Origin: Candidatus Multivoradales bacterium
GTDB taxonomy: Bacteria; Acidobacteriota; Thermoanaerobaculia; Multivoradales; J023
Assembly (NCBI GenBank): GCA_965248925.1
Contig: CBDFLE010000006.1
Coordinates: forward strand, 448,001 to 512,000
DNA length: 64,000 nucleotides
Reading direction: 5' to 3'
The position numbers and the translations under genes were made by a program. Below, in pieces: positions 3,785-59,489 of the stretch (positions are counted from its first letter, which is position 1; every line of letters begins with the position of its first letter). Under the pieces are notes generated by a model. The model was not told the origin of the DNA, ran no database searches, and saw only the letters and a program-made list of their open reading frames with translations.

Positions 3785-4345
3785 GTGAGTTCGCCTATGT
3801 ACCGCTACTTCTTCAGCATCTGCACGATCCTGGCCCTGGCTCTTGCCGTGGCCGCCAAGCCTGCCGGGTCGGGGCAGGGTATTTATCAAGAACCTACGGA
3901 TTTCCTGGACGAGGTCTTCGCGGGTGAGCCGCCGGCTTCGGAGGTTCTGTGGATCACCAAGGCGCTGCGCCCGGAGGTCGAACGTATCCTCGGACATGGC
4001 TTGGGAGCGCTGCGCGTGCGCTACTGGCGCCACGCCGAACGCACCGCTTGGATTCTCGATGAGGTCGGCAAGGACAAGCCCATCACCACCGGGGTCGTAG
4101 TCCATCAGGGGCAGATCGAACGCACCAAGGTGCTGGTTTTTCGCGAGTCTCGGGGCTGGGAGGTTCGCTACCCAGCTTTCGTGGCGCAATTCAGCGGCGC
4201 CAAGTTGGCAGTGGGCGGACTGGATCGCCATATCGACGGCATTACCGGCGCCACACTGTCGGTGCGGGCGGTGAGCAAGGTAGCGCACCTCGCCCTGTAC
4301 TTCCATCAGCGAGTCACCGCTCCGCGGGACGCTGTATCGGGATGA
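3785..4345 (+). CDS. FMN-binding (flavinylated) extracytoplasmic protein
   Basis: Signal peptide; GKDKPIT, FRESRGWEV and flavinylation motif DGITGATLS. Confidence 0.85.
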   Translation: MSSPMYRYFFSICTILALALAVAAKPAGSGQGIYQEPTDFLDEVFAGEPPASEVLWITKALRPEVERILGHGLGALRVRYWRHAERTAWILDEVGKDKPITTGVVVHQGQIERTKVLVFRESRGWEVRYPAFVAQFSGAKLAVGGLDRHIDGITGATLSVRAVSKVAHLALYFHQRVTAPRDAVSG

Positions 4346-13736: not shown

Positions 13737-14479
13737 GCGGATTTTCCGGATCTCAAGACACACTGCTGAAAGAAATCATCCATCAAGAGCAGGCGCAGGG
13801 AGGCGCCCATCTGCGGGGTGCAGAAGTTGTCGCTTATCACGAGCAGCGCCTGGGGCCGGAGGAGCAGTCCGCAGCCCGCGAGCACCTGGTGCGCTGCCCT
13901 GAATGTCGCCACCTGCTCCTCGCCCTAGGGGATACAGCAGAGGATGTCACCTCGGCCCCAACCCCCGCCGAGCCGACCCGCGAGGCGCTGGCGGAGTTTC
14001 ATGCCAAGGTGCGAACCGCGGGAACAGAGTTACCTACTCGATCCCAGCCGATCGGCTGGTGGAAGATCGCAGCGATTGTTTTGGCGACCTCGAACTTGCT
14101 CCTCCTCGGCTGGATCAGCCTCCGCGAGCCCCCGCCCACGGCGGTCGCCGGCAATCTACTGATCGAGGACATCTACCCCATCGACGACCCCTGGCGAGAC
14201 GGCAGTCCAACGGTGATTCAGCTCAATCCCGAGGTCGAGCAGATAGGTTTTCTACTCCATCTCGGCAGCGACGCGGCGAACTCCCGACGCGAGATCCAGC
14301 TGCTGAACAGTGCTGGCGAAGTGCTGTGGCGTAGCGAGTCACTCACCGTCGACGCCCACGGAATCGCCAGCGTTGCGGTGCCCGCGGCACTGTTGCCCGC
14401 CGCTCGGTACCGGCTGCGACTCGGCGGCGACTCAGCGCAAGAATTCGCGGTGACGATCGAGACCTTCGCCCGGCCATGA
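13733..14479 (+). CDS. zf-HC2 anti-sigma factor, single TM, extracytoplasmic domain
   Basis: HL..EHLVRCPECR (H-x3-C-x2-C), TM WWKIAAIVLATSNLLLLGWI; ATGA overlap. Confidence 0.85.
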   Translation: MSGFSGSQDTLLKEIIHQEQAQGGAHLRGAEVVAYHEQRLGPEEQSAAREHLVRCPECRHLLLALGDTAEDVTSAPTPAEPTREALAEFHAKVRTAGTELPTRSQPIGWWKIAAIVLATSNLLLLGWISLREPPPTAVAGNLLIEDIYPIDDPWRDGSPTVIQLNPEVEQIGFLLHLGSDAANSRREIQLLNSAGEVLWRSESLTVDAHGIASVAVPAALLPAARYRLRLGGDSAQEFAVTIETFARP

Positions 14480-17355
14480 GGGAACGCTGGCGCCGCTGGA
14501 CAGTGGTGGGCGTGGTGCTGGTCGGGACGGTGTGGGCTGGCCTCGTCTGCGGTCCGGGGTCGCGAGAAGACAGCGGAGAAATACAGGGCCTACCGGTGCG
14601 CGGGGAGTCGAAAAGACTCACTCTAGAGGGCGGCGCGACGGCCGTGTACCGAGTTGCTCTGCCGGTGAATCGCTATCTCGAGGTCGCGGTCGATCAGCAA
14701 GGGGCCGACGTGCTGATCGAGGTCTACGATCCCGAGGGTCTGAGAGTCCTTGAGGTCGACAGCCCCAACGGCACCGACGGCCGGGAAAACATCTCGCTGC
14801 TCAGTGAGACTAGCGGCGACTATCTCTTCGAACTACGATCCCTCAATCCGCCGGGTCGCTCGGGTAGCTTCACTTTGAGCCGTCAGGTGGACCGCGACGC
14901 CAGTGAAAAGGATCGTGCCCGCTTCGCGGTGGAGCGTGCTTTCGCCGCTGCCGAAGAGTTGTTTCGGCGCGGTACCGCCGCCGATCTGACCACTGCCCGC
15001 GAACGCTTTGGCTCGCTGTTGACTCAGTGGCAGAACCTCGGCCTGGCGGCACGGGAAGCGAACACGCAGATGCGGCGAGGCGATACTGAACGAGCCCTTG
15101 GCCTGCACTCAGAGTCGCTGACGGACTATCGTGCGGCCCTCAAACTCGCCGAGTCCCTGGGGGACACCCAGCTCCAAGTGAGTCTCTTTCTGCGCCTCGG
15201 TATAGTGCATTTTAAGATCGGCGAAGCAGAACTGGCAGACGGGTTTTTCCAGCGCTCGCTCGCCGGAGCACGGCAGATATCCTCACCGGCGGACGAGGCC
15301 GCTACGCTTCACAATCTGGCCCTCGCCGCCACCTCGAACGGCCGTTTCCGCCACGCGGTCGAACTCTACCGCCAGGCCCTGGGAATCTTCGATCGTCTCC
15401 AGCTGACCGCCGATCAGGCAAGAGCTTGGAGCAACTTGGGAGAGGTCTACAGCCGGCTTGGCGAGACCCGGCCGGCGGCTCTAGCATTCGAGCGTGCCCT
15501 CGAGCGCTTCCGTTGGCTCGGCGACCGGCGCGGCGAGGGCATTGCCCTCAACAATCTCGGCCTGCTGCACGCACGCGGTGGTGAGCTGGCGACCGCCGAG
15601 CAGATCTTCAGCGAAGCCCTGCAACTCATGCGACAAGTGGGTGACACCGCCAGTGAGGCCCGGACCGAGAACAATCTTGGCTGGATCGCGGGCCTACGTG
15701 GCGCCTTGGACGAGGCCACCTTCCACTACCAGCGAGCCCTAGGAATCGCCCAACGCCTCGGCAATCCGCGCACTGAGGCCAATCTGCTGCTCAATCTCGG
15801 CTGGCTGGCCGGAGCACGGAAGAATCTGGAAGAGTCCCTCCGACTGCACCGCGACGCCCTGGCCCGCTTCCAGGCCCTTGGCGATCCAGTCCAGCAAGCA
15901 CAGGCTCTCTATGGCATCGCCATGGCAGAACATCAAGCGGCAAGAGAAGTCCTGGCACAGGCGGCCTGCGAAGCCGCCATCGAGCAAGTCGAAACAGTCC
16001 GCCAATACATGGCCGGAGATACCCTCGGCATGGCTTTCTTTGCCACCCGCCAAGACCTCTACGACTTCTACATCGACCTGCTGATGACCCGTCACCAGCT
16101 CGACGGTGGCACCACCTACAGCCGCGCCGCCTTCGCGGCTAGCGAACGCTCCCGAGCGCGCGGCTTTCTCGACCTTCTGGCGACTGCGGAACAGGCCTGG
16201 TCGGCCGCATCACCGGTCGGTCTCGAGGCGATCCGTCAGCAGATTCTGGACGACGAGACCGCGCTCCTGCACTACCATTTGGGGTCGCCCCACAGCTACG
16301 TTTGGGTGATGACTCGGAGCAGCTTCGAAGTGCGGATCCTGCCGCGATCGGCCGCCCTCGAAGCTGTGGCGCGGCCCGCCTTGCAGCTGCTCGAGAACAG
16401 CCATCAACGTCGCTACCGGGAAGAGGCGCAGACTCGGCTTCGTCAACTGGCTTCGGCAGTCCTGTGGCCCGCCCTCGAAGGAGTGAAGGCGAACCGACTG
16501 CTGATCGTCGCCGATGGCGCGCTGGCCCGCCTGCCCTTTGCCGCCCTACCGATCCGCGGCGAGTGGCCAGGCGACCGGCCTCTGCTGGCCGCCTACGAAG
16601 TGGTCCATTTGCACTCCGCCTCGACCCTGCTGGCACTCCGTCGCGCCCGCGCTGGCCGACCTCCCGCCAAGGCTCGCCTCGCGGTGCTCGCCGACCCGGT
16701 CTACGCTCCTTCTGACCCTCGCCTGCCGGCACCGCTGGCCACCACCACTCCACCATCGGGCTCTGAGTTCCCGCGGCTGGTGGCGGCCAGCGCCGAGGCG
16801 GCCGCGATCAGCGCCTGGATCCCGGCTGATCAGCGCCTGGTCGCCACCGGAGCCGAAGCCTCCCGACAATTGGTCCTCAGCGGGCGGCTGGCCGATTTTC
16901 GGGTGCTCCACTTCGCCGTCCACAGCGTGCTCGACAGCCAGAGCCCGGATCGCTCATCCCTAGTGCTCTCGCGCTGGGACGCCGAGGGCCGGCCGGTTGA
17001 CGGATTCCTTCGCTTGCGGGACCTGCGGAACCTGAACCTACGAGCCGACACAGTGGTGCTGAGCGGCTGCAGGACAGCTTTGGGCCGGATCTGGGACGGC
17101 GAAGGCATTGTCGGCTTGCCGCAGGCGTTTCTGCTGGCCGGAGCTCGCCAAGTGATCGTCTCGCTGTTTCGCGTTCGCGACCGGGCAACGGCCGAGCTGA
17201 TGGGTCGTTTCTACCAGCGCCACTTCGGCGCCGGCATGCCGGCAGCAGCGGCCCTGCGACATGCTCAGCTTTCGATGGCCGGCGACCCGCGGTGGCAAGC
17301 ACCCGCGGATTGGGCCGGATTCGTCCTCGAAGGCGATTTTTCCCTCTCCCCCTAA
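14476..17355 (+). CDS. TPR-repeat CHAT-domain protease
   Basis: N-terminal TM/signal, PPC-like domain (VDQQGADV..VDSPNG), about 9 TPRs, SERSRAR, LLIVADGALARLPFAAL, VLHFAVH, VVLSGCRT, WAGFVLEG. Confidence 0.93.
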   Translation: MRERWRRWTVVGVVLVGTVWAGLVCGPGSREDSGEIQGLPVRGESKRLTLEGGATAVYRVALPVNRYLEVAVDQQGADVLIEVYDPEGLRVLEVDSPNGTDGRENISLLSETSGDYLFELRSLNPPGRSGSFTLSRQVDRDASEKDRARFAVERAFAAAEELFRRGTAADLTTARERFGSLLTQWQNLGLAAREANTQMRRGDTERALGLHSESLTDYRAALKLAESLGDTQLQVSLFLRLGIVHFKIGEAELADGFFQRSLAGARQISSPADEAATLHNLALAATSNGRFRHAVELYRQALGIFDRLQLTADQARAWSNLGEVYSRLGETRPAALAFERALERFRWLGDRRGEGIALNNLGLLHARGGELATAEQIFSEALQLMRQVGDTASEARTENNLGWIAGLRGALDEATFHYQRALGIAQRLGNPRTEANLLLNLGWLAGARKNLEESLRLHRDALARFQALGDPVQQAQALYGIAMAEHQAAREVLAQAACEAAIEQVETVRQYMAGDTLGMAFFATRQDLYDFYIDLLMTRHQLDGGTTYSRAAFAASERSRARGFLDLLATAEQAWSAASPVGLEAIRQQILDDETALLHYHLGSPHSYVWVMTRSSFEVRILPRSAALEAVARPALQLLENSHQRRYREEAQTRLRQLASAVLWPALEGVKANRLLIVADGALARLPFAALPIRGEWPGDRPLLAAYEVVHLHSASTLLALRRARAGRPPAKARLAVLADPVYAPSDPRLPAPLATTTPPSGSEFPRLVAASAEAAAISAWIPADQRLVATGAEASRQLVLSGRLADFRVLHFAVHSVLDSQSPDRSSLVLSRWDAEGRPVDGFLRLRDLRNLNLRADTVVLSGCRTALGRIWDGEGIVGLPQAFLLAGARQVIVSLFRVRDRATAELMGRFYQRHFGAGMPAAAALRHAQLSMAGDPRWQAPADWAGFVLEGDFSLSP

Positions 17356-43417: not shown

Positions 43418-44690
43418 CACTGCTGTCCCGTTAACTTCGCAGAAAAATAGGCTCAAACCTCCCTGGTCTTGATAGAATCAGTCATCGCTAAACGGCTGAA
43501 TCAAAGGGAGATCTGAGCCTTGGCACATCATAGCACCGTCTTCGCCCAGCTACTGCAACTGATTTCGAGACATGAATTCGAGGCCCTCGCAAAACGCCAC
43601 CACGCCGGTCGCCAGTTCCGCACTGCGAGCCGCTGGTCGCAGCTGGTGGCTCTGATGATGGCCCAGCTGTCCGGGCGTTCTAGCTTGCGCGACATCGTTG
43701 ACAATCTACGAGCGCAGCGGCACAAGCTCTACCATCTCGGCTGCCGAGTCCTGTCGCGATCTAACTTGGCACGGATCAACGAAGAGAAGCCCTATCTCCT
43801 TTTTGAAGAGCTATTTGGGAGACTTCTGGGGCATGCTCAGGCAGTGGCGCCCAAGCATACGTTCCGGTTCAAGAACCGCTTGTTCTCGCTTGACGCCTCG
43901 GTGATAGACCTCTGTCTGTCGATATTCCCATGGGCGAAGTTTCGTACGACCAAGGGAGCGATCAAGCTGCATGTGGGGTTGGATCACGGTGGCTACTTGC
44001 CTGCCTTCGTTGCGATCTCGGATGGAAAAACAGGTGACATCGCGGGCTGCAAGAGCCTGACGCTGCCACGAGGAAGCATCGTAGCTTGTGATCGTGGTTA
44101 CAACAGCTACAGCTGGTTTCGTCAGCTGAGCGAGAAGGGTCTTTTCTTTGTGACCCGTCTGAAGCGCGGGGCCAAGTACCGCGTGACCGAACGTCGAAGA
44201 GTCAATCGTTCCAAGGGTTTGATGAGCGACCAAACGATCGAATGGACCGGTGTGAAGGCGTGTCGTGACTGCCCGATGCCTCTGCGGAGAGTAGGCTATC
44301 GCGACCCTGAGACCGGCAAGATCTACTATTTCTTGACGAACCTGTTCCGCCTGTCACCTCAGACCATTGCCGATATCTACCACGAACGTTGGCAAATTGA
44401 ACTCTTCTTCAAGTGGATCAAGCAGAATCTGAAGATCAAGACTTTCGTCGGCACCAGCCGCAACGCCGTGCTGACTCAGCTTTGGATCGCCATGTGCGTC
44501 TACCTATTGCTCGCTTTCATCAAGCACAAGCACCGTCTTTCCAGTAGTTTACGGGAGGCCTTGCGCCTCCTTCAATTGAACCTCTTTGAGCGCCGCGACC
44601 TCATGGCCCTCTTGAAACGAGAGCCGCCGCCGATCCCAGGACTAGACGAAAGACAACTGGTAATCGTCGGAAGTTAACGGGACAGCAGTG
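43418..44690 (+). mobile_element. IS4 family insertion sequence
   Basis: Perfect 21-bp IRs CACTGCTGTCCCGTTAACTTC; 9-bp TSD AGTCAGGGT at 43409 and 44691. Confidence 0.95.
43520..44677 (+). CDS. IS4 family transposase
   Basis: SLRDI, LDASVIDL, KLHVGLD, DRGY, Y.ERWQIELFFKWIKQNL. Confidence 0.95.
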   Translation: MAHHSTVFAQLLQLISRHEFEALAKRHHAGRQFRTASRWSQLVALMMAQLSGRSSLRDIVDNLRAQRHKLYHLGCRVLSRSNLARINEEKPYLLFEELFGRLLGHAQAVAPKHTFRFKNRLFSLDASVIDLCLSIFPWAKFRTTKGAIKLHVGLDHGGYLPAFVAISDGKTGDIAGCKSLTLPRGSIVACDRGYNSYSWFRQLSEKGLFFVTRLKRGAKYRVTERRRVNRSKGLMSDQTIEWTGVKACRDCPMPLRRVGYRDPETGKIYYFLTNLFRLSPQTIADIYHERWQIELFFKWIKQNLKIKTFVGTSRNAVLTQLWIAMCVYLLLAFIKHKHRLSSSLREALRLLQLNLFERRDLMALLKREPPPIPGLDERQLVIVGS

Positions 44691-51183: not shown

Positions 51184-51606
51184 GTGCGCGAGGACTACCG
51201 GTGGTATTTCTGTGCTGGGTGTCGAGCCTCGGTCGAGATCTGCTCGCACTGTGACCGGGGGCAGATTTACTGTGGCCAGGAGTGCTCCAGCGCCGCCCGC
51301 CGCGAGTCCTTGCGAGTTGCTGGTTGGCGCTACTGCCAGACCCCTCAAGGTCGCCGAAATCAGGCCGAGCGGCAGGCCCGATGGCGTCAGCGCCAGCAGG
51401 CCGAAGCGCAGAAAGTAACGCATCAGGGTACCCCACCCCCAGAGCCCCCAGTCATCCTCACTACGCCACCCCCGAGTGGGTCCAAGGACCGCCTTGCCCC
51501 GCTCGGCGAGCCGCGATGCTGCTTCTGTGGCGTTCTCTGCCGTCCATTCGTCCGTCTGGATCCCCTCAGACGACGACGGCGGCGCAAACGGAGAGATCGA
51601 AGATGA
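51184..51606 (+). CDS. Cys-rich zinc-finger-like protein upstream of istA
   Basis: CAGC..CSHCDRGQIYC..C, RQARWR, VTHQG, CCFC; ATGA-coupled to istA. Confidence 0.7.
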   Translation: MREDYRWYFCAGCRASVEICSHCDRGQIYCGQECSSAARRESLRVAGWRYCQTPQGRRNQAERQARWRQRQQAEAQKVTHQGTPPPEPPVILTTPPPSGSKDRLAPLGEPRCCFCGVLCRPFVRLDPLRRRRRRKRRDRR

Positions 51607-53102
51607 TTTCAGAAGAGAAGAAACAGGAGATCCTGCGCTACCACTTCGTGGAGAAATGGCGGCCGGGCACGATCAGCCGGCAGCTCGGAGTTCACTACGA
51701 GACGGTGCAGCGAGCCCTGCGGGATGCCGGGGCGCCGACGGCGATTTCGACCCGCAGCTCGATAGTTGATCCTTACCAGCCCTTCATGCACCAGACCTTG
51801 GAGAAGTTCCCGAGCCTCCCGGCGAGTCGGCTCTACCAGATGGTCAAGGAGCGCGGCTACTCAGGAGGTGAGGATCATTTCCGTCACCTGGTGGCTCGAA
51901 TAAGACCTCGTCGCAAGGCTGAGGCTTACCTGCGCCTGACCACCTTGGCTGGCGAGCAAGGGCAAGTGGATTGGGGCCATTTCGGCTCTATCAAGGTGGG
52001 AGGCGCGGAGCACAGCCTGATGGGCTTCGTTCTGGTAGCGAGCTACTCGCGTCGGATCTTCCTCCGGTTCTTCCTCAACGCGCGGATGGAGAATTTTCTG
52101 CGCGGTCATGTGGCCACCTTCGAGAGATGGCAAGGTGTCTTCAAGATCTTGCTCTACGACAATCTGAAAAGTGTGGTGCTCGAACGCCGGGGCGAGGCGA
52201 TTCGCTACAACCCCAAGTTCCAGGAATTTGCCGGCCACTACCGATTCGAGCCACGGCCAGTAGCGATCGCTCGGGGCAACGAGAAAGGACGTGTAGAGCG
52301 CGCCATTCGCTATATCCGAACTTCGTTCTTCGCCGGTCGGGAGTTCAAGGATCTCGACGATTTGAATCGTCAAGCCGAGGCATGGTGTGAGGGCTGGGCA
52401 GATCGTCGGAAATGGCATCAGGACCCCAGCAGAACGGTCAGCGAAGCCTTCGAGGACGAGAGGTCCTACCTGATCGAGCTGCCCACCGAGCCGTTTCGGA
52501 CCGAGGAGCGCGGCGAGGCTCACATTGGCAAGACGCCGTATGCACGCTTTGATCGCAACGATTACTCGGTGCCGTTCGATCGGGTGCGCCGCACTCTGAC
52601 GGTGCGCGCCAGCCTCTTAGAGGTACGCATCTTCGACGGTCACAAGGTCGTGGCGTGCCATCCCAGATCCTTCGATCGCAGCCAGCAGATCGAGAACCCC
52701 GAGCATATCCAGGAGCTTGTCGATCACAAACACCGGGCGAAGAAACATCGGGGGCTCGATCGTCTCAGGCGCGCGGCTCCAAGGTGCGAGGCGCTGTTGC
52801 AGCGACTCGCCGAGAGAGGGCTGCCTCTGGGAACCGCTACCGCAGCACTCCTGCGTTTGCTCGACCACTACGGCACCGAGGCTCTCACCTCGGCCGTCGA
52901 AGAGGCGCTCGGCAACCACTCCTGCGACGTCCAGGCCGTTCGCCTGGTGCTCGAGCGCCGTGAGCGCGAGCGTCAGGCCACGCCGATGCTTCCTCTCCGC
53001 CTACCCAAAGATCCCAGAATCCGGGATCTCGACGTGCGCCCTCATGATCTCAACGACTACGACCGTCTCAGCCGCCAGGAGGATCCTCATGACGACGACT
53101 GA
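51603..53102 (+). CDS. istA: IS21 transposase IstA
   Basis: HTH, GEQGQVDWG, YDNLKS, EKGRVER, NDYSVP. Confidence 0.95.
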   Translation: MISEEKKQEILRYHFVEKWRPGTISRQLGVHYETVQRALRDAGAPTAISTRSSIVDPYQPFMHQTLEKFPSLPASRLYQMVKERGYSGGEDHFRHLVARIRPRRKAEAYLRLTTLAGEQGQVDWGHFGSIKVGGAEHSLMGFVLVASYSRRIFLRFFLNARMENFLRGHVATFERWQGVFKILLYDNLKSVVLERRGEAIRYNPKFQEFAGHYRFEPRPVAIARGNEKGRVERAIRYIRTSFFAGREFKDLDDLNRQAEAWCEGWADRRKWHQDPSRTVSEAFEDERSYLIELPTEPFRTEERGEAHIGKTPYARFDRNDYSVPFDRVRRTLTVRASLLEVRIFDGHKVVACHPRSFDRSQQIENPEHIQELVDHKHRAKKHRGLDRLRRAAPRCEALLQRLAERGLPLGTATAALLRLLDHYGTEALTSAVEEALGNHSCDVQAVRLVLERRERERQATPMLPLRLPKDPRIRDLDVRPHDLNDYDRLSRQEDPHDDD

Positions 53103-53853
53103 AGATCTGCTCATCCGGGCCAAGAAGCTCGGGCTGCACGGTCTGGTCGAAGATTGGAGTCAACTTCAGAACCAGCCTTGGGTGCTGCCTTTGATCGACC
53201 GAGAGGAGATAGTGCGACACCAGAGGAGCCTCGAGAGGCGAATCCGCAACGCACACATCGGCACCTTCAAGCCGATGGCCGACTTCGACTACAAGTGGCC
53301 ACGAAAGATCGATCGCCTGATGGTGGAAGACCTCTTCAACTTCCAATGGCTCGAAGAAGGAGCCAACGTCATCCTCTTCGGTCCCAACGGCGTCGGCAAG
53401 TCGATGATCGTTCAGAATCTCACCTACCAGGCCTTGTTGCGTGGCGCCACCGGACGCATGCTCACCGCCAGCGAACTGCTCAACGACCTCGCGGCACAAG
53501 AGAGTTCCAGGGCTCTGCAGCGGCGCCTGGCCCTCTACACCCGGCCCGATCTGCTGGCCATTGACGAGCTAGGCTACCTGTCCTACGACCATCGCCACGC
53601 CGACCTCCTCTTCGAGGTGGTAAGCCGGAGGTATCAGAAGAAATCTATTCTGCTGACCACCAACAAACCCTTCTCCGAGTGGCAGAGCGTCTTCGCCTCG
53701 GCCACCTGCGTGGTCACCCTTGTCGATCGGCTCGTACATCACGCCGAGATCGTCACCATCGAAGGCGACTCCTATCGGCGCAAAGAAGCAGAAGAGGAAA
53801 AGAAACGGCGAGCACAAGACCGCGCGCGGCGGCGAAAGGCGAAGGTGTCATGA
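53089..53853 (+). CDS. istB: IS21 helper ATPase IstB
   Basis: GPNGVGKS, IDELGY, TTNKPF.EW, DRLVHH, GDSYR. Confidence 0.95.
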   Translation: MTTTEDLLIRAKKLGLHGLVEDWSQLQNQPWVLPLIDREEIVRHQRSLERRIRNAHIGTFKPMADFDYKWPRKIDRLMVEDLFNFQWLEEGANVILFGPNGVGKSMIVQNLTYQALLRGATGRMLTASELLNDLAAQESSRALQRRLALYTRPDLLAIDELGYLSYDHRHADLLFEVVSRRYQKKSILLTTNKPFSEWQSVFASATCVVTLVDRLVHHAEIVTIEGDSYRRKEAEEEKKRRAQDRARRRKAKVS

Positions 53854-54191
53854 GCAAGTGCGACTACGTCCAGGCGATTCTCAGAGCTTACCTTGAGCAG
53901 CAGGAGACCCCTGCTCAGGCAAGACCCACTGACCGCGTACTCGCTCTTGATCTCTACCAGCAGCAAGTCTCCATCGATCAGATCAGAGCAGCCATTCTCC
54001 TCGCAGCCGGTCGACGAATCCAGCGATCTCCAGAGGCACCCAAGCTAGCCAAGATCCGATCCCTCGCCTACTTTGCGCCGGTGATTCGAGAACTCGATGG
54101 CCTTGAAGACATCGAGGGGTATCTCAAGTATCTCCAAAGCACCGCTCGGCGCGAGCAGGGGCTGCACACCGGCTCGGATTACACCGAATAG
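53850..54191 (+). CDS. hypothetical passenger protein downstream of istB
   Basis: ATGA-coupled; YL..ETP...R..D, AILLA..RR, IRSLAYF.PVI.E. Confidence 0.7.
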   Translation: MSKCDYVQAILRAYLEQQETPAQARPTDRVLALDLYQQQVSIDQIRAAILLAAGRRIQRSPEAPKLAKIRSLAYFAPVIRELDGLEDIEGYLKYLQSTARREQGLHTGSDYTE

Positions 54192-55021
54192 ATACGTTCT
54201 TGCTCAGCCGCTAACATGGGGTCGAGGTACTCCGCGTAGTGGTGGTAGGCACGGAGCTTCTCGGCGACCTCGCGTGGACTCTCCGACCCGCGATCAGCCT
54301 CGAGGCAGTAGAGGCGGCTTACCGGACTTCCCATTGAATTCTGGTTCAGTGCGAAAACGAGATCCGGTCGGATGCGGAGCGGCTTGTCGAAGCCAGCGAC
54401 GTCCAGATTCTCTTGGCTCACAAATCGCTCGACGTGCTTCTTCTGGCGGACATCACCAACGGCATGCGTATGGTAGAAGGGCATCCCGAGAGGCGGTAAA
54501 TCGACGAGCTGGATCGCGCTCTTTCTGATGGACTCGGCGACAGTCACGGCGCACTCGCTGACCATGAGCGCGTGGTGGATCTGGCGAAGGGATTGGGCAC
54601 TACCGGCAGGGCGATAGAGCCGTTGTTGTTCGATACCGTAGCGATCACGAAGCGCCGGAAGGGCGGGCTCGTCCAGGAAGTAGATCCGCTCCCGTGTTTC
54701 CAGCAGAGTGTCGCCGGTGATGTACCCCTTCTGCCAGAGTCGCCGTAGGCGCTTGCGGACGTTGTGCAGCGACGAAACGCGGTCTTCTTCCGGCTGGTAG
54801 TAGCCAGCTCTGCGCAGCTGACCGAGGGTGAGAACGCGCAGCATCCAGAGCCAGCGGAACAGCTCGTGATCCGTATCGGTGAGGACCAGCCCTGGTGGTC
54901 TTCGGCTTCCTGATGAGGTGTGGTTTTCCATCGTCGTGCGTACATCCCTGGGGAATCGTTACCAGGCGGCGCTCGCCGATGGCCGATGCGGAGCAAGCTC
55001 CAACTTCGGCGTCCTTCGATG

Positions 55022-55258
55022 CTACTCATGACCGGGATCCGAGGTCGAGGAACGAAGGAGACTCTCGACCCAACTCTCCAGATCTTCTGGTCGGTAGCGC
55101 ACTGCCCGTGCCGATATTTTGACATACCTCGGGCCTCGACCCTGGTATCTCCATGCCTGCAATGCGCGGCGCGTAAGGTTCAGATAGGCAGCGGCATCAA
55201 CCTCTGTCAGGAGGGGGGATCTCGCGGTCAGTTTCCTGGTCTGGCTGTGTCTGTTCAT
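55022..55258 (-). CDS. excisionase-like helix-turn-helix protein
   Basis: LLTEVDAAAYL..TRRALQAWR.QGRGP.YVKI..AVRY. Confidence 0.9.
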   Translation of the reverse strand: MNRHSQTRKLTARSPLLTEVDAAAYLNLTRRALQAWRYQGRGPRYVKISARAVRYRPEDLESWVESLLRSSTSDPGHE

Positions 55259-55676
55259 GGCTCTGTTGCTCCCTTCATGGCGTGTCTTCCAGATCGTTCG
55301 GCATCGTTGCTCGGCTCCAGAAAACCCTACCGAGGAAGCGCACTCCTGACAATTTACCCGTCGATCCCACCCGCATTCTGGGCGGGGTCATCGGGTAGGG
55401 GGAGCGGGTACTCACTATCGGAGTAAGCCGTTTGTTTGCTTCATCTTAAGAATCTCAAGATTCTTCTCTAGACACACCGCCGATGCGCAGCAGAATACGG
55501 ATTCCATTAAACGAGCTGAAAATGGCGCTCGCAAGATTCACCAAATCGAGGCGGTCCGCCGCGTCAGCGTCAGGATGGTGGCCGGTGGGGAGGACGGTGG
55601 ATTCAGTCAGCAGCTGTGAGCGCGAGCAAGAAAAAAGGCCCCACTCCGCACGAGTGCGAGGCAGGGCCAGATCTCG

Positions 55677-56351
55677 CTAGAGCCGCGCCAGTCGCCGAGA
55701 AGCGATGAGGTGGTACTCCTCGTCGAGTTCGATCCCGACGAAATGCCGACCGTGGCGTACAGCCGCTTCACCGGTGGAACCCGAGCCCATAAACGGATCA
55801 AGGACAACTTCCCCAGGATTCGAGAACGCCTCGATCAGAGGCTCCAGTGCCGTCAACGGCTTCTGAGTCGGATGGAGCTTGTTGCCGCTGTAGCTCCACG
55901 GCAGCACGTCGTTCAGCAGGACGTTCGGTCGCATCAGTTTTGCGGACTTCCCTGAAAACCCTGAAGATCCCGAAGAGCCTTTCGTCAAGAGGTAGGCGCA
56001 TTCATGCGTCGAGCGCACCAGCTTCCGCGCCGAAGCGTAGCCCTTGTGCCAGACGAAATGCGCGACCGGATACAGACCGGCGCTCTTCCAGGCTTCCAAG
56101 AAGAGGTCTGCCTTGTTCCAGCCGTAGAAACTGACGCAGTAGCGCCCGGACTTCAAGACGCGAGCGATCTCCTTGAAGGCAGGCGCCAGCCAGTCGGACT
56201 GGCGGTCATTGGCGATCTGGCGGCCATCGCGTGAGCGGTAATTCACCAGATAGGGCGGATCGGTGAGAACGAAATCGACCCGCTCGGCAGGAGCATTCCT
56301 GAGGATGTCGATGCAGTTGCCGTTGATGAGTTTGATTCGCAGTGGATTCAT
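55677..56351 (-). CDS. orphan N4/N6 DNA methyltransferase (beta class, plasmid type)
   Basis: TDPPY, HPTQKP, VLDPFMGSGST, GIELD. Confidence 0.93.
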   Translation of the reverse strand: MNPLRIKLINGNCIDILRNAPAERVDFVLTDPPYLVNYRSRDGRQIANDRQSDWLAPAFKEIARVLKSGRYCVSFYGWNKADLFLEAWKSAGLYPVAHFVWHKGYASARKLVRSTHECAYLLTKGSSGSSGFSGKSAKLMRPNVLLNDVLPWSYSGNKLHPTQKPLTALEPLIEAFSNPGEVVLDPFMGSGSTGEAAVRHGRHFVGIELDEEYHLIASRRLARL

Positions 56352-56412
56352 AGGAGTGAAGAAAAAAAAGAGAGCCGATGACCGGAACCATCGACTCTTT
56401 GCTCTTGGAGGA

Positions 56413-56727
56413 TCAGATACTCAAGAGTCTGTCGCACCGAGGACACTCTCCTGCGGTGATCAACAGGGGACGCCATTGCCGACAGCACGACCAGTAGATG
56501 TACGATCGTCTGTCGCCGCCGTCTTCCCGCACAAGATCTTTAGGATCGAGATAGTCGCCACATGATGGGCACTGGATGTCAGTCACGTCAGTCTCGTCGT
56601 CATCGAGTTCGAGGCAATTGCAATCAATATGTCCGCAGCAATACGGGCAGTGCTCGCAATCGGATCCTTCCGGAAACCAGTATTCGGCTTGCAGCTGTTG
56701 GCAGTGTGGGCAGATGTAAGGGTTCAT
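56413..56727 (-). CDS. small Cys-rich zinc-ribbon protein (104 aa)
   Basis: CPHC, CEHCPYCC, CNC, CPSC, CC, CPRC. Confidence 0.7.
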   Translation of the reverse strand: MNPYICPHCQQLQAEYWFPEGSDCEHCPYCCGHIDCNCLELDDDETDVTDIQCPSCGDYLDPKDLVREDGGDRRSYIYWSCCRQWRPLLITAGECPRCDRLLSI

Positions 56728-56801
56728 AGGATGTGAAGAAAAAAAGAGAGCCCGATGCCGAGAAGACACCAGGCTCCGCTTCGGAAGATCACCGGTCGGA
56801 A

Positions 56802-56990
56802 CTAGCCGCAGCATTTCGGATCGGCAGCCACGCCATCCAGTTGGGCAAGGTGACAGTCGCAGAGAAAACCGTAACAGTCTGGACACTGATACTCAGTGGT
56901 TGAGACTCCGAGGTAAGTACCGTCGGTAGTGACCGACGCATCGTCCTGCTCTTCCTTGCAATGTGGGCAGATGTAGGAATGAGAGTTCAT
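56802..56990 (-). CDS. small Cys-rich zinc-ribbon protein (62 aa)
   Basis: YICPHC, CPDC, CDC, CC; shares N-terminus with neighbour. Confidence 0.65.
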   Translation of the reverse strand: MNSHSYICPHCKEEQDDASVTTDGTYLGVSTTEYQCPDCYGFLCDCHLAQLDGVAADPKCCG

Positions 56991-57051
56991 AGGATGTGAA
57001 GAAAAAAAGAGAGCCCGATGCCGAGAAGACACCAGGCTCCGTTTCGGAGGA

Positions 57052-57264
57052 TCACCGATCTGGCAATGCCGCATTGTCGGTCCTGGGCTCCATCAGCACG
57101 AATCGTCCATCTGGTGGCAACAGATCTAGAGAAACCGAGAGACCCTTACCGCTCTTGGTTCTCCAAGCGGCGCCGATCTTGGTCCAGTACTCATCCTTCA
57201 CATGGAAGGCGTGGTAGACCGGAGTGTTCCGGGAAGACCGAGAAGACTCTTTTGCAGAAATCAT
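57052..57264 (-). CDS. small mobile-element protein with WTKIGAAW motif (putative nucleic-acid binding)
   Basis: WTKIGAAWRTKSGKGLSVSLDLLP.DGRFVLMEP. Confidence 0.75.
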   Translation of the reverse strand: MISAKESSRSSRNTPVYHAFHVKDEYWTKIGAAWRTKSGKGLSVSLDLLPPDGRFVLMEPRTDNAALPDR

Positions 57265-57730
57265 GGGAATTGGGGAAAAAGGAAAAAATGCCGACCGAGT
57301 CCAATCCATCGCTCGACGTCTCGATACCAGCCACAGGGGTCCGCGGGTCACGGAGGAGTCGCGGGCAGGGAGAGGAATAGCCTTGGTCGATGAAGACGCG
57401 GCGTGGCTTCGTTCCATGCTGCTAGAGAAAACATCGAAGCCGTGCCGGGACTTCACCCAAGGATCTGCTCGACTGCCCGCGAAGCTCCTTGACCCGCGGC
57501 GTATTCACCCCGGTGGCTACACTGAAGAGACCTGAGCGATCCCCCTCTCCCGTCCTCATCAGATCCCGACTGCCCGCAGTTACTCGCTGTCCCGGAGCAC
57601 AACTTCGCATTGTGCGAAGTTCACGGCGACAGCCGGAACTCCTTGCACAATGTCCGGTTGTGCCTGGGGCTACTGGCAGATGCGGGATGACCAGCTTGAC
57701 GCTGCCCAACGATCGTCTATCCTTCATGGC

Positions 57731-58003
57731 ATGAAGCGTCGCCACCGCACATTCCGAGTCCATGTCGAGCCCGAGCCAGCGGGTGGCTGCACGGTGACCG
57801 TGCCGGCTCTCCCCGGCTGCATCACCTGGGGCGAGTCCTACGACGATGCCGCGGAGAAAATCCGCGAGTGCATCGAAGGATTCCTCGAAGCCCTCACCAA
57901 GGCTGGTGATCCGATCCCGGCTGGCGAGCCGGTGGAGCCGCCACGGGATGCGCTGATCCAGGTGCCTCTCCCGAGTCGTGGCGAGGACAGGCTGCGATCC
58001 TGA
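57731..58003 (+). CDS. hicB: HicB family antitoxin (no hicA seen)
   Basis: GGCTVTVPALPGCITWGESYDDA..IRECI. Confidence 0.88.
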   Translation: MKRRHRTFRVHVEPEPAGGCTVTVPALPGCITWGESYDDAAEKIRECIEGFLEALTKAGDPIPAGEPVEPPRDALIQVPLPSRGEDRLRS

Positions 58004-58029
58004 CTCTCCCGAGTAGGACAGTCGGCGGC

Positions 58030-58335
58030 TCAGCGACGCCGCTTCCAGACTCTGGGGTGTCGAGCTTGGTGGACCACGGCAAGCACGTAGAGAACCTCGC
58101 CGCCGAGCTGTGGGCGAGTGTGGTAGAAGACCGCGTACGGGAATCGGTGCAGATTGGCCCTGCGAATGTCTCCGAGAGCGACAGGAAAGCCAGTCGGGAA
58201 ATCCACCATCTGCTCGAAGACCTGCTCCAACTCCCGCTGAAATCGGAGATCGAGATCAGAAGCGAGCTGGTCGGCGTACCACTCCCTAGTGGCGGCAACA
58301 TCCTTCTGTGCAGCCGAGCTGAGCTGGATTCGCAA
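58030..58335 (-). CDS. RelE/ParE family toxin
   Basis: AAQKDV..WY, RRANLHRFPYAVFY, VHQARHP..W. Confidence 0.88.
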   Translation of the reverse strand: MRIQLSSAAQKDVAATREWYADQLASDLDLRFQRELEQVFEQMVDFPTGFPVALGDIRRANLHRFPYAVFYHTRPQLGGEVLYVLAVVHQARHPRVWKRRR

Positions 58336-58338
58336 GCG

Positions 58339-58569
58339 TCACGAACCAGTTGGCCAGATTTCCGCCTTGACCTGCTCCCACGGCTTACCGGGATCATTCT
58401 TGCTCTCTTCGAGGCGCTGTTCGAGCAAGTCTCTCTGCCATTGCGGCAGAGAGATGGCGTCAGGATAGGCGTTGGGATCCGCTACGCTCGCCCACAGGTC
58501 TTCAGCAAGGGCAAGCCGTTCTGCCTCTGGGAGTTCGAGAGCTTGGGTCGTTACTTCGGTCTTGGTCAT
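58339..58569 (-). CDS. addiction-module antitoxin
   Basis: ALELPEAERLALAEDLWASV..LPQWQRDLLEQRL..PWEQVK. Confidence 0.88.
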   Translation of the reverse strand: MTKTEVTTQALELPEAERLALAEDLWASVADPNAYPDAISLPQWQRDLLEQRLEESKNDPGKPWEQVKAEIWPTGS

Positions 58570-58644
58570 AGCTTCAGTGTATTCCAGTGCGAAGGAAATG
58601 CAAGGCGGCTCCAATCGGCAAGACCGGAGCCGCCTTCATCGTTG

Positions 58645-58872
58645 TTAGGTCGACTCCTTCGGGAGCGTCCGGATCCGTAGCTCTCCGGGAGAGGTCTCGA
58701 CGACGAATCTACGCCCTACTTCGAAGCCCAGCTGCGACAGCCATTTACCGGAAAGCCGAAGACAGGGCCGCGCCACCTCTCCGCGGTAGAGATAATGCAC
58801 CTTGGCCGTCCTGCGGTTGTCCCCTTCGACAGACTGAAGAATTCCAGTACCGGAGGTCGGTTGCTGGCTCAT
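58645..58872 (-). CDS. SymE-like toxin
   Basis: PCLRLSGKWLSQLGFEVG..VETSPGELRI. Confidence 0.8.
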   Translation of the reverse strand: MSQQPTSGTGILQSVEGDNRRTAKVHYLYRGEVARPCLRLSGKWLSQLGFEVGRRFVVETSPGELRIRTLPKEST

Positions 58873-59489
58873 GAGCCCGTCTCCGTGGCAGGGGCCGTTG
58901 GTGTCCCGTTGCCGATCGTCTCCCGGAACCGGAGCTGCCCGTCCTGAATCTCGCCGATCGCCACTTCGATCTGAAGCCGGCCGAACCGCGTGCCCGTGCA
59001 GAGGTGGATTTCAGGCGGCTCAGCAGTTGTCGAATCATCGATCTGGTGCTCCAGGCCTACTTCGGCAACGTGCAGGAACTCCCGCACCGCGACCAGGATC
59101 GAGACACAGGTTCCTGGCAGCATCTGCGCTGCCAAGATACTGGGTGCAGACGAAGCCGGCGTGAGGATGTCCCTGATTCCAGAGGCTGCGACGAGCAAGC
59201 CGCGTAGAGCCTGCTGCATGCGGAGTTGGAGTACGGGATCGGCGGGACGGGTGTCCCCGAGCCCGAGTGCCGGGTCGTCGAGATCCCCGACCAGGGTGGG
59301 CAGACGATCGAACTCGATGGAGTCCAGTGCCTGTCGGCACCCTGAGGAGGTGTCACCCCCGCCTCTGTCAGGAGACAATGTAGGACCGAGGGCGGTGAAG
59401 TTTGCCCTCGTACCGGCAGCGACTTCGGAAAGTTCTCTCAGGACCCGACTTTGGTCCTCAGGAAGAGTAGAATTCGGCTGGTCACTCAT
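58869..59489 (-). CDS. hypothetical protein coupled to symE-like gene
   Basis: GGAGGA RBS; ATGA overlap. Confidence 0.55.
   Translation of the reverse strand: MSDQPNSTLPEDQSRVLRELSEVAAGTRANFTALGPTLSPDRGGGDTSSGCRQALDSIEFDRLPTLVGDLDDPALGLGDTRPADPVLQLRMQQALRGLLVAASGIRDILTPASSAPSILAAQMLPGTCVSILVAVREFLHVAEVGLEHQIDDSTTAEPPEIHLCTGTRFGRLQIEVAIGEIQDGQLRFRETIGNGTPTAPATETGS

Follow-up and report, generated by a model that had tools for sequence, protein, structure and literature searches.

Genes of the Array

The window analysed here, a 64,000-nt stretch of the genome of a Candidatus Multivoradales bacterium (GCA_965248925.1, contig CBDFLE010000006.1, positions 448,001 to 512,000), contains a gene array in which a repeated RNA module precedes three consecutive genes. 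The array is composed of four minus-strand genes of the same sense, which encode a DUF736-like protein, a 62-amino-acid (aa) Cys-rich protein, a 104-aa Cys-rich protein and a DNA methyltransferase, respectively. The module carries a hairpin, a T-run and a leader without a Shine-Dalgarno (SD) sequence; its structure, distribution and probable function are the subject of this report.

The first gene of the array (57052..57264, minus strand) encodes a protein of 70 aa that contains the sequence WTKIGAAW. This protein missed the cut-off of Pfam DUF736 (16.7 bits versus 22.1, E 0.007) and, given the sub-threshold score, is named DUF736-like only. The family scored in two of five relatives (E 0.007 and 0.056, with reporting up to 0.1), and 33 relatives are present in the protein collection. 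The AlphaFold model predicts a small beta fold (pLDDT 79.9). A Foldseek comparison of this model with the PDB gave no match at E up to 0.001, and the DUF736-like profile found nothing among PDB sequences (best E 0.26). Weak leads alone were obtained from the Atlas, namely DUF736 (0.78) and Enc34 single-stranded DNA (ssDNA)-binding (0.77).

The second gene (56802..56990, minus strand) encodes the 62-aa, zinc-ribbon-like Cys-rich protein and the third (56413..56727, minus strand) the 104-aa Cys-rich protein, both as cassettes. In family searches the Cys-rich proteins gave zinc-ribbon matches, all of them below threshold. The first ~11 codons of the 104-aa gene resemble those of the 62-aa gene. 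The last gene (55677..56351, minus strand) encodes an orphan DNA methyltransferase of 224 aa with a DPPY motif (Pfam N6_N4_Mtase, 2e-34; PHROG DNA methyltransferase, 2.9e-63). It is followed by the terminal terminator of the array (55631..55668, minus strand; GGCCC...GGGCC and then T6), which was recognized from the sequence and by the terminator scan.

Anatomy of the Module

The module consists of a hairpin of 12-13 bp, one C, T7 or T8, a spacer of 10-11 nt that is nearly all pyrimidine (CTTCAC(A)TCCT) and the start ATGAA. Module 3 (56991..57051, minus strand) precedes the 62-aa gene and contains a spacer after the TGA, a hairpin at 57040-57010, the C at 57009, T7 at 57008-57002, CTTCACATCCT at 57001-56991 and the ATG at 56990. 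Module 2 (56728..56801, minus strand) precedes the 104-aa gene, with its hairpin at 56777-56747, C at 56746, T7 at 56745-56739, an 11-nt spacer at 56738-56728 and the ATG at 56727. Module 1 (56352..56412, minus strand) precedes the methyltransferase gene, with its hairpin at 56398-56371, C at 56370, T8 at 56369-56362, CTTCACTCCT at 56361-56352 and the ATG at 56351. An earlier sequence-only reading of this DNA had described a structured leader before these three genes; the leader is present in all three, and the stems quoted for it are correct. The same reading had the TGA of the preceding gene opening the repeat in two copies, and this TGA is a true stop in copies 3 and 1. In copy 2, the real upstream stop is a TAG located 13 nt further upstream.

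All three modules are picked by a consensus terminator scan (13, 13 and 12 pairs), which found six sites in the 4-kb region versus 2.8 +/- 1.5 in shuffles. A 20-nt module core occurs twice in the window at up to three mismatches versus zero times in 100 shuffles, and copy 1 escapes this search solely through one extra T. The RNA folds of the three modules reach -26.8 kcal/mol (z -4.0), -28.1 kcal/mol (z -3.6) and, in copy 1, -17.2 kcal/mol (z -1.6, not significant by itself). Copies 2 and 3 are identical at 57 of 58 nt and at 89% over 92 nt with their flanks. Since this 92-nt repeat reaches into the first codons of both Cys-rich genes, copies 2 and 3 are a recent duplication or gene conversion; copy 1 is a distinct version.

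The absence of an SD sequence, also claimed in the earlier reading, holds in all five copies of the genome: GGAG, GAGG, AGGA and GGGA are all missing between the T-run and the ATG. The fourth, degenerate leader that it placed before the WTKIGAAW gene is present as a pyrimidine-rich, SD-less leader (57265..57300, minus strand; CATTTTTTCCTTTTTCCCCAATTCCC at 57290-57265), and its local hairpin is not better than shuffles (z +1.4). The mean unpaired probability of this leader is 0.89, and the sequence CTCGGTCGGC(A/G)TTTTT within it is kept at the three loci that retain the DUF736-like gene (the window, L005 and L006). A full module takes the place of the degenerate leader at L062, the fourth aligned locus.

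Rfam gave no matches at E up to 1 over 54000-59000 and none at the gathering score in seven related loci. A scan of 54500-58500 found no sigma-70-like promoter on the array strand. A leaderless promoter was dropped as a candidate, as the hexamer at -12 to -7 is TCTTCA or TTCTCA and no TANNNT is found there; a CsrA-type loop motif, found in only one of the eight loops described below, was dropped as well. Two antisense open reading frames (ORFs) on the plus strand (56733-56903 and 56996-57217), which start MKKKREPDAEKTPGS, cross modules 2 and 3 and probably arise as artefacts, both from the repeat itself and from the purine-rich antisense sequence. ORFs running through the modules, which are expected in purine-poor sequence, were not considered further.

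Copies Beyond the Window

Five copies of the motif have been identified in the whole source genome (G000, 7.98 Mb), all in two paralogous arrays, with three copies in the window and two at C6:2.283 Mb. The second array (G000:C6:2282300-2284200, minus strand; L005 4545-6230) contains a DUF736-like gene, a module, a 62-aa Cys gene, a module, the methyltransferase gene and a 59-aa Cys gene with a degenerate leader, followed, as in the window, by HTH_17 and Replic_Relax, a putative relaxase pair. The proteins of the two arrays are 65-71% identical.

Alignment with MAFFT and RNAalifold misaligned the stems (4-pair structure) and was replaced by a covariance model seeded from copies 2 and 3, which recovers the diverged copies at E 4e-5 to 1e-7. 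The rebuilt model (R2), applied at the order level, matched 8 of 151 genomes; five of the eight matches are plain terminators, one of them with a normal SD after it. Genome G053 carries one module copy with the same sequence as L006, a locus of a metagenome-assembled genome that comprises the DUF736-like gene, module and methyltransferase gene. One copy is also present in G066, where it precedes a different 83-aa gene and the methyltransferase is truncated. The metagenome scan found two loci, a contig with the order DUF736-like gene, module and methyltransferase gene (L066) and a distant relative without the module (L067).

The phylum-level search with the DUF736-like profile matched 2 of 401 genomes, the source genome and one weak match. 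Methyltransferase scanning of genome contigs gave 44 loci, of which 43 were inspected; the full module was found in L006 only, and a looser one in Sulfidibacter (L007). A pattern scan of viral contigs gave 24 loci, all chance matches in A+T-rich DNA, and none of them pairs a hairpin at the U-run with an ORF of at least 20 codons. Judged from these searches, the element family is rare. The known copies comprise seven distinct ones, from five elements. The motif thus recurs elsewhere, in the second array, G053/L006, G066 and L066, and the presence of five copies in two paralogous arrays as well as in relatives argues against a single recent tandem duplication, as do the compensated stems and the turnover of cargo described below.

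Stem Conservation and Folding Strand

When folded individually, all eight copies give closed stems of 9-16 pairs, which differ in sequence. The stem arms, aligned from the stem base, are 34-42% identical, compared with 80% identity over the 21 nt that lead from the U-run to the ATG. Of the cells in the model-fitted alignment, 98.5% are paired (38-47% in controls with a slid partner column), and both sides have changed in 7 of 13 pairs. These figures agree with the earlier proposal that structure is conserved over sequence.

The seven distinct stems contain 21 G.U pairs but a single C.A mismatch. In six of the eight copies, RNA of the sense strand folds more stably than that of the antisense strand, by 3.5-14.5 kcal/mol. 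All eight RNA stems have energies of -11 to -27 kcal/mol, whereas as DNA the stems are weak, with -7 to -12 kcal/mol for the sense strand and -3 to -8 kcal/mol for the antisense (template) strand. Taken together, the G.U bias, the advantage of the sense fold and the weakness of the DNA stems indicate that it is the sense-strand RNA that folds. A run of T7 or T8 starts 1-2 nt after the last pair in all eight copies, so that the sequence hallmarks of intrinsic terminators, a G+C-rich stem-loop on the sense strand and a U-tract directly 3' of it, are both found. The hairpin and U7-8 would form a canonical intrinsic terminator, for which transcript ends within the U-tract are predicted.

Sense-strand RNA hairpins in every intercistronic space, each with an unpaired U-rich segment just 3' of the stem, could also be elements of RNA processing or stability, in which an endonuclease cuts in the U-rich stretch, the hairpins protect the upstream 3' ends and a polycistronic transcript is split into mRNAs of separate stability, similar to the action of RNase III sites in the early region of phage T7. 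The failure of the promoter scan to find internal promoters fits this explanation. However, all eight copies keep a homopolymeric U7-8 right next to the stem, a hallmark of termination and not of a cleavage site, and perfect stems of 10-16 bp are shorter than the typical substrates of RNase III. Processing is considered unlikely.

Leader, Spacing and Host Start Signals

The distance from the end of the stem to the ATG is 19 nt in all eight copies. Copy 1 differs from copies 2 and 3 by one inserted T that is offset by one deleted A, and this compensated indel is modest evidence for a spacing constraint.

The tail of the host 16S rRNA carries CCUCC. GGAG or GAGG is found at -20 to -4 of 32% of the first ATGs of 4614 long ORFs versus 11% in the background, and this threefold enrichment, together with the CCUCC tail, indicates that the host normally uses SD sites. 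None of the 4614 long ORFs has at least 20 pyrimidines in the 22 nt upstream. Runs of T7 or longer number 194 in the 7.98 Mb; a preceding hairpin is present at 83 of them, five of which are modules. An ORF start lies within 10-35 nt of 23 of these 83 hairpin T-runs, and a leader of at least 89% pyrimidine is found in the five modules only. Canonical U-tract terminators appear to be rare in this host, which has a G+C content of 62%.

The predicted mean unpaired probability from -18 to +3 is 0.64-0.89 in seven of eight array genes, compared with 0.43 +/- 0.10 (95th percentile 0.59) in 200 SD-bearing host genes. The start regions thus have the features looked for in SD-independent initiation of the ribosomal protein S1 type: they lack complementarity to the anti-SD sequence and are, by prediction, single-stranded.

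The pair of DUF736-like and methyltransferase genes is conserved across phyla. On Rhizobiales plasmids the pair has an ordinary SD and an overlapping stop/start, TAATG, so that the module is a lineage-specific replacement of conventional signals. An example of the plasmid arrangement is the Rhizobium plasmid NZ_CP121658 (L097 5995-6824), in which the DUF736-like gene adjoins the methyltransferase gene with the TAATG overlap and a normal SD. The methyltransferase loci of Alphaproteobacteria (L021-L045) contain another, strongly conserved element ~100 nt upstream of the start, TTTGCACACCCC..TTCGCCA..GGGCAGGGTTGCATGCGCAACCC. The second hairpin of this element shows compensatory variants and has a normal SD after it; an Rfam scan of four such loci (L028, L037, L040 and L041) gave no match.

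Another explanation of the module is that it is nothing special, i.e., that ordinary gene-end terminators stand before closely packed genes and have been copied by duplication. Copies 2 and 3 are indeed a recent duplicate, and start-abutting terminators occur elsewhere in the genome, e.g., at C6:1048773 between two chromosomal genes. That terminator has a different leader, CACCCGGTC, however, and the module has been kept in two arrays with proteins of 65-71% identity and in three further elements, with compensated stems, a leader that is 80% identical and a poverty of purines found in no other leader among the 4614 long ORFs. We regard this explanation as quite improbable. The terminator at C6:1048773, which sits between two ordinary chromosomal genes, was rejected as a further copy of the module.

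Cassette Turnover

The number of Cys-rich genes between the DUF736-like gene and the methyltransferase gene differs among the relatives: there are none in L006 and L066, one in L005 and two in the window. L005 has an additional Cys gene after the methyltransferase gene, and the first gene in G066 is the different, 83-aa gene. Two short contigs from metagenome-type assemblies of other public runs, placed at 85% likeness, bear on the arrangement only and not on the mechanism. The X5 contig (1478 nt) runs from the methyltransferase gene through a hairpin to the 62-aa gene, joining 56376 to 56767, and skips 56377-56766, which is the 104-aa cassette. The X6 contig (445 nt) joins the module of the 104-aa gene to the end of the DUF736-like gene (56776 to 57050) and skips 56777-57049, which is the 62-aa cassette. 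The hairpin at the X5 junction is a fully paired variant of the copy 2/3 stem in which one U.G is now U-A (14 intervening letters). Relatives therefore differ by whole cassettes with breakpoints at the modules, and the unit of a module plus a small ORF behaves as a portable cassette. The turnover of cargo between the repeats, which the earlier reading had anticipated, is thereby confirmed. Recombination between the repeats is its probable cause, and no enzyme-specific site would be required.

This turnover, in which the joints lie at the hairpins, is one of the observations that would be expected if the module acted at the level of DNA, with the short hairpins serving as ssDNA promoters or priming signals or as attC-like recombination sites. 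The near identity of copies 2 and 3 (57 of 58 nt), maintained while the flanking coding sequence diverged to 74%, and the mobile-element setting point the same way. The stems are weak as DNA, however, and the bias toward G.U pairs favours the sense strand, which cannot be the template. The modules contain no -35/-10 box, no GTTRRRY or RYYYAAC core and no extrahelical bases, and the U-tract and the fixed distance to the ATG would have no role. In C6:490-552 kb, the part searched, the only recombinase found is a tyrosine recombinase (C6:530033-531112) located ~25 kb from the array, and the hairpin at the X5 junction, fully paired, represents a separate variant and no crossover product of window copies. 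Two of the four functions proposed in the earlier reading accordingly found no support, the ssDNA promoter as regards these short hairpins of 10-16 bp, and the dedicated recombination site. A DNA-level role of the module is the least probable of all explanations considered here.

Function of the Module

Among the four proposed functions, the attenuator fits best. The preferred reading, held with moderate confidence, is that the modules act as leaky intrinsic terminators, that the U-tract doubles as an unstructured, SD-independent start site, and that the modules also form the boundaries of cassettes. We infer termination, read-through and translation at the modules alike from the sequence. The hairpin and U7-8 would stop part of the transcripts after each cistron, and expression would consequently fall stepwise from the DUF736-like gene to the methyltransferase gene. 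Between the genes no room would be left for a promoter. In the read-through RNA, the U-tract and the pyrimidine-rich spacer of 10-11 nt could form an open start region without an SD, and the hairpin, 19-20 nt upstream of the AUG, would occupy about the closest position that does not block the 30S subunit. Initiation would then depend on accessibility and not on anti-SD pairing. Ribosomal protein S1 would probably be involved, a proposal based on the known relation of this protein to U-rich leaders. Each cistron has its own copy of the module, in keeping with the portable units described above. The array adjoins a putative relaxase operon and encodes establishment-type functions, namely the orphan methyltransferase and small proteins.

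Several observations weigh against this interpretation. Strong hairpins with a perfect U7-8 are usually efficient terminators, and three of them in series should nearly silence the methyltransferase gene unless read-through is high or conditional, a difficulty that leaky termination leaves unexplained and that keeps alive the conditional bypass discussed below. The distance from the upstream stop to the stem varies from ~4 to 24 nt and gives no consistent coupling between ribosome and terminator; coupling through a fixed stop-to-stem distance was dropped on this ground. Copy 1 by itself folds no better than shuffles (z -1.6). The known copies are related (seven distinct copies from five elements), so that covariation statistics overstate their independence, and the alignment with 98.5% pairing was fitted to the structure. 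For both reasons, the folds of the single copies count for more. The constant spacing of 19 nt could reflect shared descent in a region that aligns almost without indels, and one compensated indel pair alone argues for a constraint.

Mobile-Element Setting and the Long Upstream Hairpin

From ~45 kb onward, and beyond its end, the window is occupied by an integrated mobile element ridden with insertion sequences (IS). Genes of this element encode a T4CP-like ATPase, Replic_Relax, HTH_17, TraG/VirD4, toxin-antitoxin proteins of the HicB/ParE/SymE type and a MobA/VirD2 fragment. The second array has the same element core and adjoins housekeeping genes. Judged by gene content, the mobile-element setting is real, and a location of the array in a 'leading region' is plausible.

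A toxin-antitoxin-type cluster adjoins the array at 57650-58872 and contains genes for a HicB-like protein, for a ParE toxin and its Unstab_antitox partner, and for a SymE-like toxin. Next to Replic_Relax, at 51282-53853, lies an inserted element of the IS21 family (IstA/IstB), and a second IS21 copy and IS4-like copies (DUF4372 and DDE_Tnp_1) are located nearby (43520-44677; C6:521140-523472), so that the mobile element has undergone heavy disruption. At 14476-17355 and C6:524185-527709, large proteins of the CHAT-TPR and TIR-TPR types are encoded, and a SIR2-like gene lies near the second array (L072 5539-6615); these genes suggest defence-type cargo around the elements.

Two conserved non-coding features have been found on either side of the array. 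A block at 55300-55480, between the methyltransferase gene and the HTH_17/Replic_Relax operon, is common to L005 and L006; its pattern is TACCCGC ... ACCCG.TG ... hairpin ... GGGT(A)AATTG.CAG, and it is a candidate oriT or promoter. A conserved inverted repeat at 57590-57700, CATTGTGCAA...TTGCACAATGC(A/G)..GTTGTGC(TC), occupies the distal end of the non-coding region and is also present at L005 7240-7300, L006 2320-2400 and L062 6040-6170. It may serve as an oriT or as an operator. L005 contains an insertion of toxin-antitoxin-like ORFs between this inverted repeat and the long hairpin.

The long hairpin, a conserved imperfect hairpin of ~200 nt, is located upstream of the array (57310..57520, minus strand) and is a candidate for a Frpo-like element or a structured 5' untranslated region. 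Four homologues align with compensatory changes, TAGCCAC/GTGGCTG in the window versus TAGCAGAC/GTCTGCTG in the others; L005 has lost the apex but retains the base. The plus strand folds as ssDNA at -68.4 kcal/mol (z -7.6) and the sense RNA at -113.7 kcal/mol (z -5.2). The plus-strand arm contains TTGACC in the stem and TACACT at the stem base after a looped-out stretch, pointing toward the array. TTGACC/TTGAGG together with TA(C/A)A(C/A)T is found in three of the four homologues, with the latter hexamer at the same alignment position. The -35 and -10 boxes are 15 nt apart in three homologues, compared with 23 nt in the window, and L006 has no -10-like hexamer. In Sulfidibacter corallicola (L007), two near-identical copies of a ~190-nt element are found at 2190-2400 and 3800-3990. 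As template-strand ssDNA, this element gives a long hairpin (z -3.9) with TTGACA-N14-TACAAT toward a DUF2958 gene, which has a short hairpin of its own and a T-rich, SD-less leader.

These features bear on a further explanation, according to which the modules are conditional terminators that are efficient on double-stranded DNA (dsDNA) and are bypassed on the incoming single strand, or by an antiterminator encoded by the element, so that the operon is expressed in a burst after transfer. This presupposes that terminators fail on ssDNA templates. In its favour, the RNA stems are very strong (-15 to -27 kcal/mol) and have a perfect U7-8 in three consecutive copies, and the conserved 200-nt hairpin upstream would, in its template-strand form, direct the TTGACC/TACACT boxes, of which the second is kept at one alignment position in three of four homologues, toward the array. 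The conserved non-coding block by the putative relaxase operon, a candidate oriT or promoter, is placed such that the array would be the first to enter, as template strand, and both ssDNA promoters and leading-region methyltransferases have been described (PMC11541004). On the other hand, the boxes are spaced by 15 or 23 nt and L006 lacks the -10-like hexamer, and on dsDNA these boxes would simply act as a divergent promoter of the ordinary kind, serving the plus-strand genes next to them. The G.U and A.C counts of the long hairpin (about 11 versus 7) show no strand bias, and no NusG/RfaH-like or other antiterminator family was found among the ORFs scanned. Conditional termination is, on balance, doubtful, to about the same degree as RNA processing.

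A fuller version of this proposal, which we hold to be slightly less likely still, takes the modules as state-sensing terminators and portable expression adaptors. After transfer, transcription from the long Frpo-like hairpin would pass all three terminators, as nascent RNA could not fold on a partnerless template, and one burst of the establishment operon, including the methyltransferase gene, would result. Once the DNA became double-stranded, the hairpins would terminate and the distal genes would fall silent. The possession by each gene of its own terminator plus landing pad would let new anti-defence cassettes slot in without any other signal.

Significance

Anti-defence genes are abundant in the early or establishment regions of transferable elements, and to our knowledge almost nothing is known of how such regions are expressed outside enterobacterial plasmids. 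In the array, one RNA module of ~60 nt would serve both as the end of a cistron and as the next start signal, without the usual ribosome-binding site of the host. If this is true, the order of hairpin, U7-8, 11 nt and AUG offers a search handle for small cargo genes in poorly studied phyla, the array is a natural case of SD-independent initiation in an SD-using host, and it provides a test bed for the question whether serial terminators modulate or gate expression once DNA has been transferred. Should the modules be no more than leaky terminators, they represent a tidy but modest variant of a known design; interest would be high solely if the conditional bypass were true.

Comparison with Known Systems

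The module resembles intra-operon (partial) Rho-independent terminators and attenuators in having a G+C-rich hairpin with U7-8 on the sense strand, a few to ~20 nt before an SD-less ATG. Unlike such terminators, it recurs ahead of three successive cistrons and, in degenerate form, ahead of another two. It also has a conserved leader and a fixed distance to the ATG, and it travels with interchangeable small genes in a host with few U-tract terminators.

U- or pyrimidine-rich, S1-dependent enhancers of translation and SD-independent initiation on unstructured leaders are known. The module leader is similar to these in that it has no SD and hardly any purines and is, by prediction, single-stranded, whereas its U-tract is also the tail of a terminator.

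The Frpo/ssi ssDNA promoters occur together with methyltransferases in the leading regions of plasmids (PMC11541004). The array shares with these regions establishment-type genes (an orphan methyltransferase and nearby toxin-antitoxin genes) in one direction and a long conserved hairpin upstream. In contrast, the short module hairpins of 10-16 bp lack promoter boxes, and the strand on which they fold is the wrong one. The hairpin at 57310-57520 alone resembles Frpo in architecture, without a convincing -10 box or spacing.

The IncN CUP is a conserved repeat with a promoter and a repressor operator upstream of leading-region genes. The Reg576 units of plasmid p576 are operator-promoter units repeated before establishment genes (PMC6294495). 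The array is like both in that one regulatory sequence is reiterated before several early or establishment genes of a transferable element. Reg576 and CUP are DNA-level promoters with operators, whereas the module is promoterless and would act as RNA; the comparison is one of descriptions.

Integron gene cassettes are delimited by attC sites with R''/L''-L'/R' boxes, a GTTRRRY core and extrahelical bases, and have a neighbouring intI. The array shares with them small promoterless ORFs between imperfectly conserved hairpins and a content that varies among relatives. It differs in that the window modules have no GTT core, the stems are perfect and there is no adjacent integrase. Unlike attC, the module hairpin precedes the next start codon and is linked to it in function.

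The early genes of phage T7, among them the anti-restriction gene 0.3, have RNase III hairpins between them. In both systems, hairpins separate the cistrons of a transcript that carries entry-phase genes, whereas the sites in T7 are RNase III substrates of long and irregular form that lack U-tracts.

What sets the array apart from these systems is that one RNA module stands in series before each cistron, with compensated stems, a conserved leader and fixed spacing. It is also distinctive that this occurs in an SD-using host with few U-tract terminators, and that the module delimits exchangeable gene cassettes.

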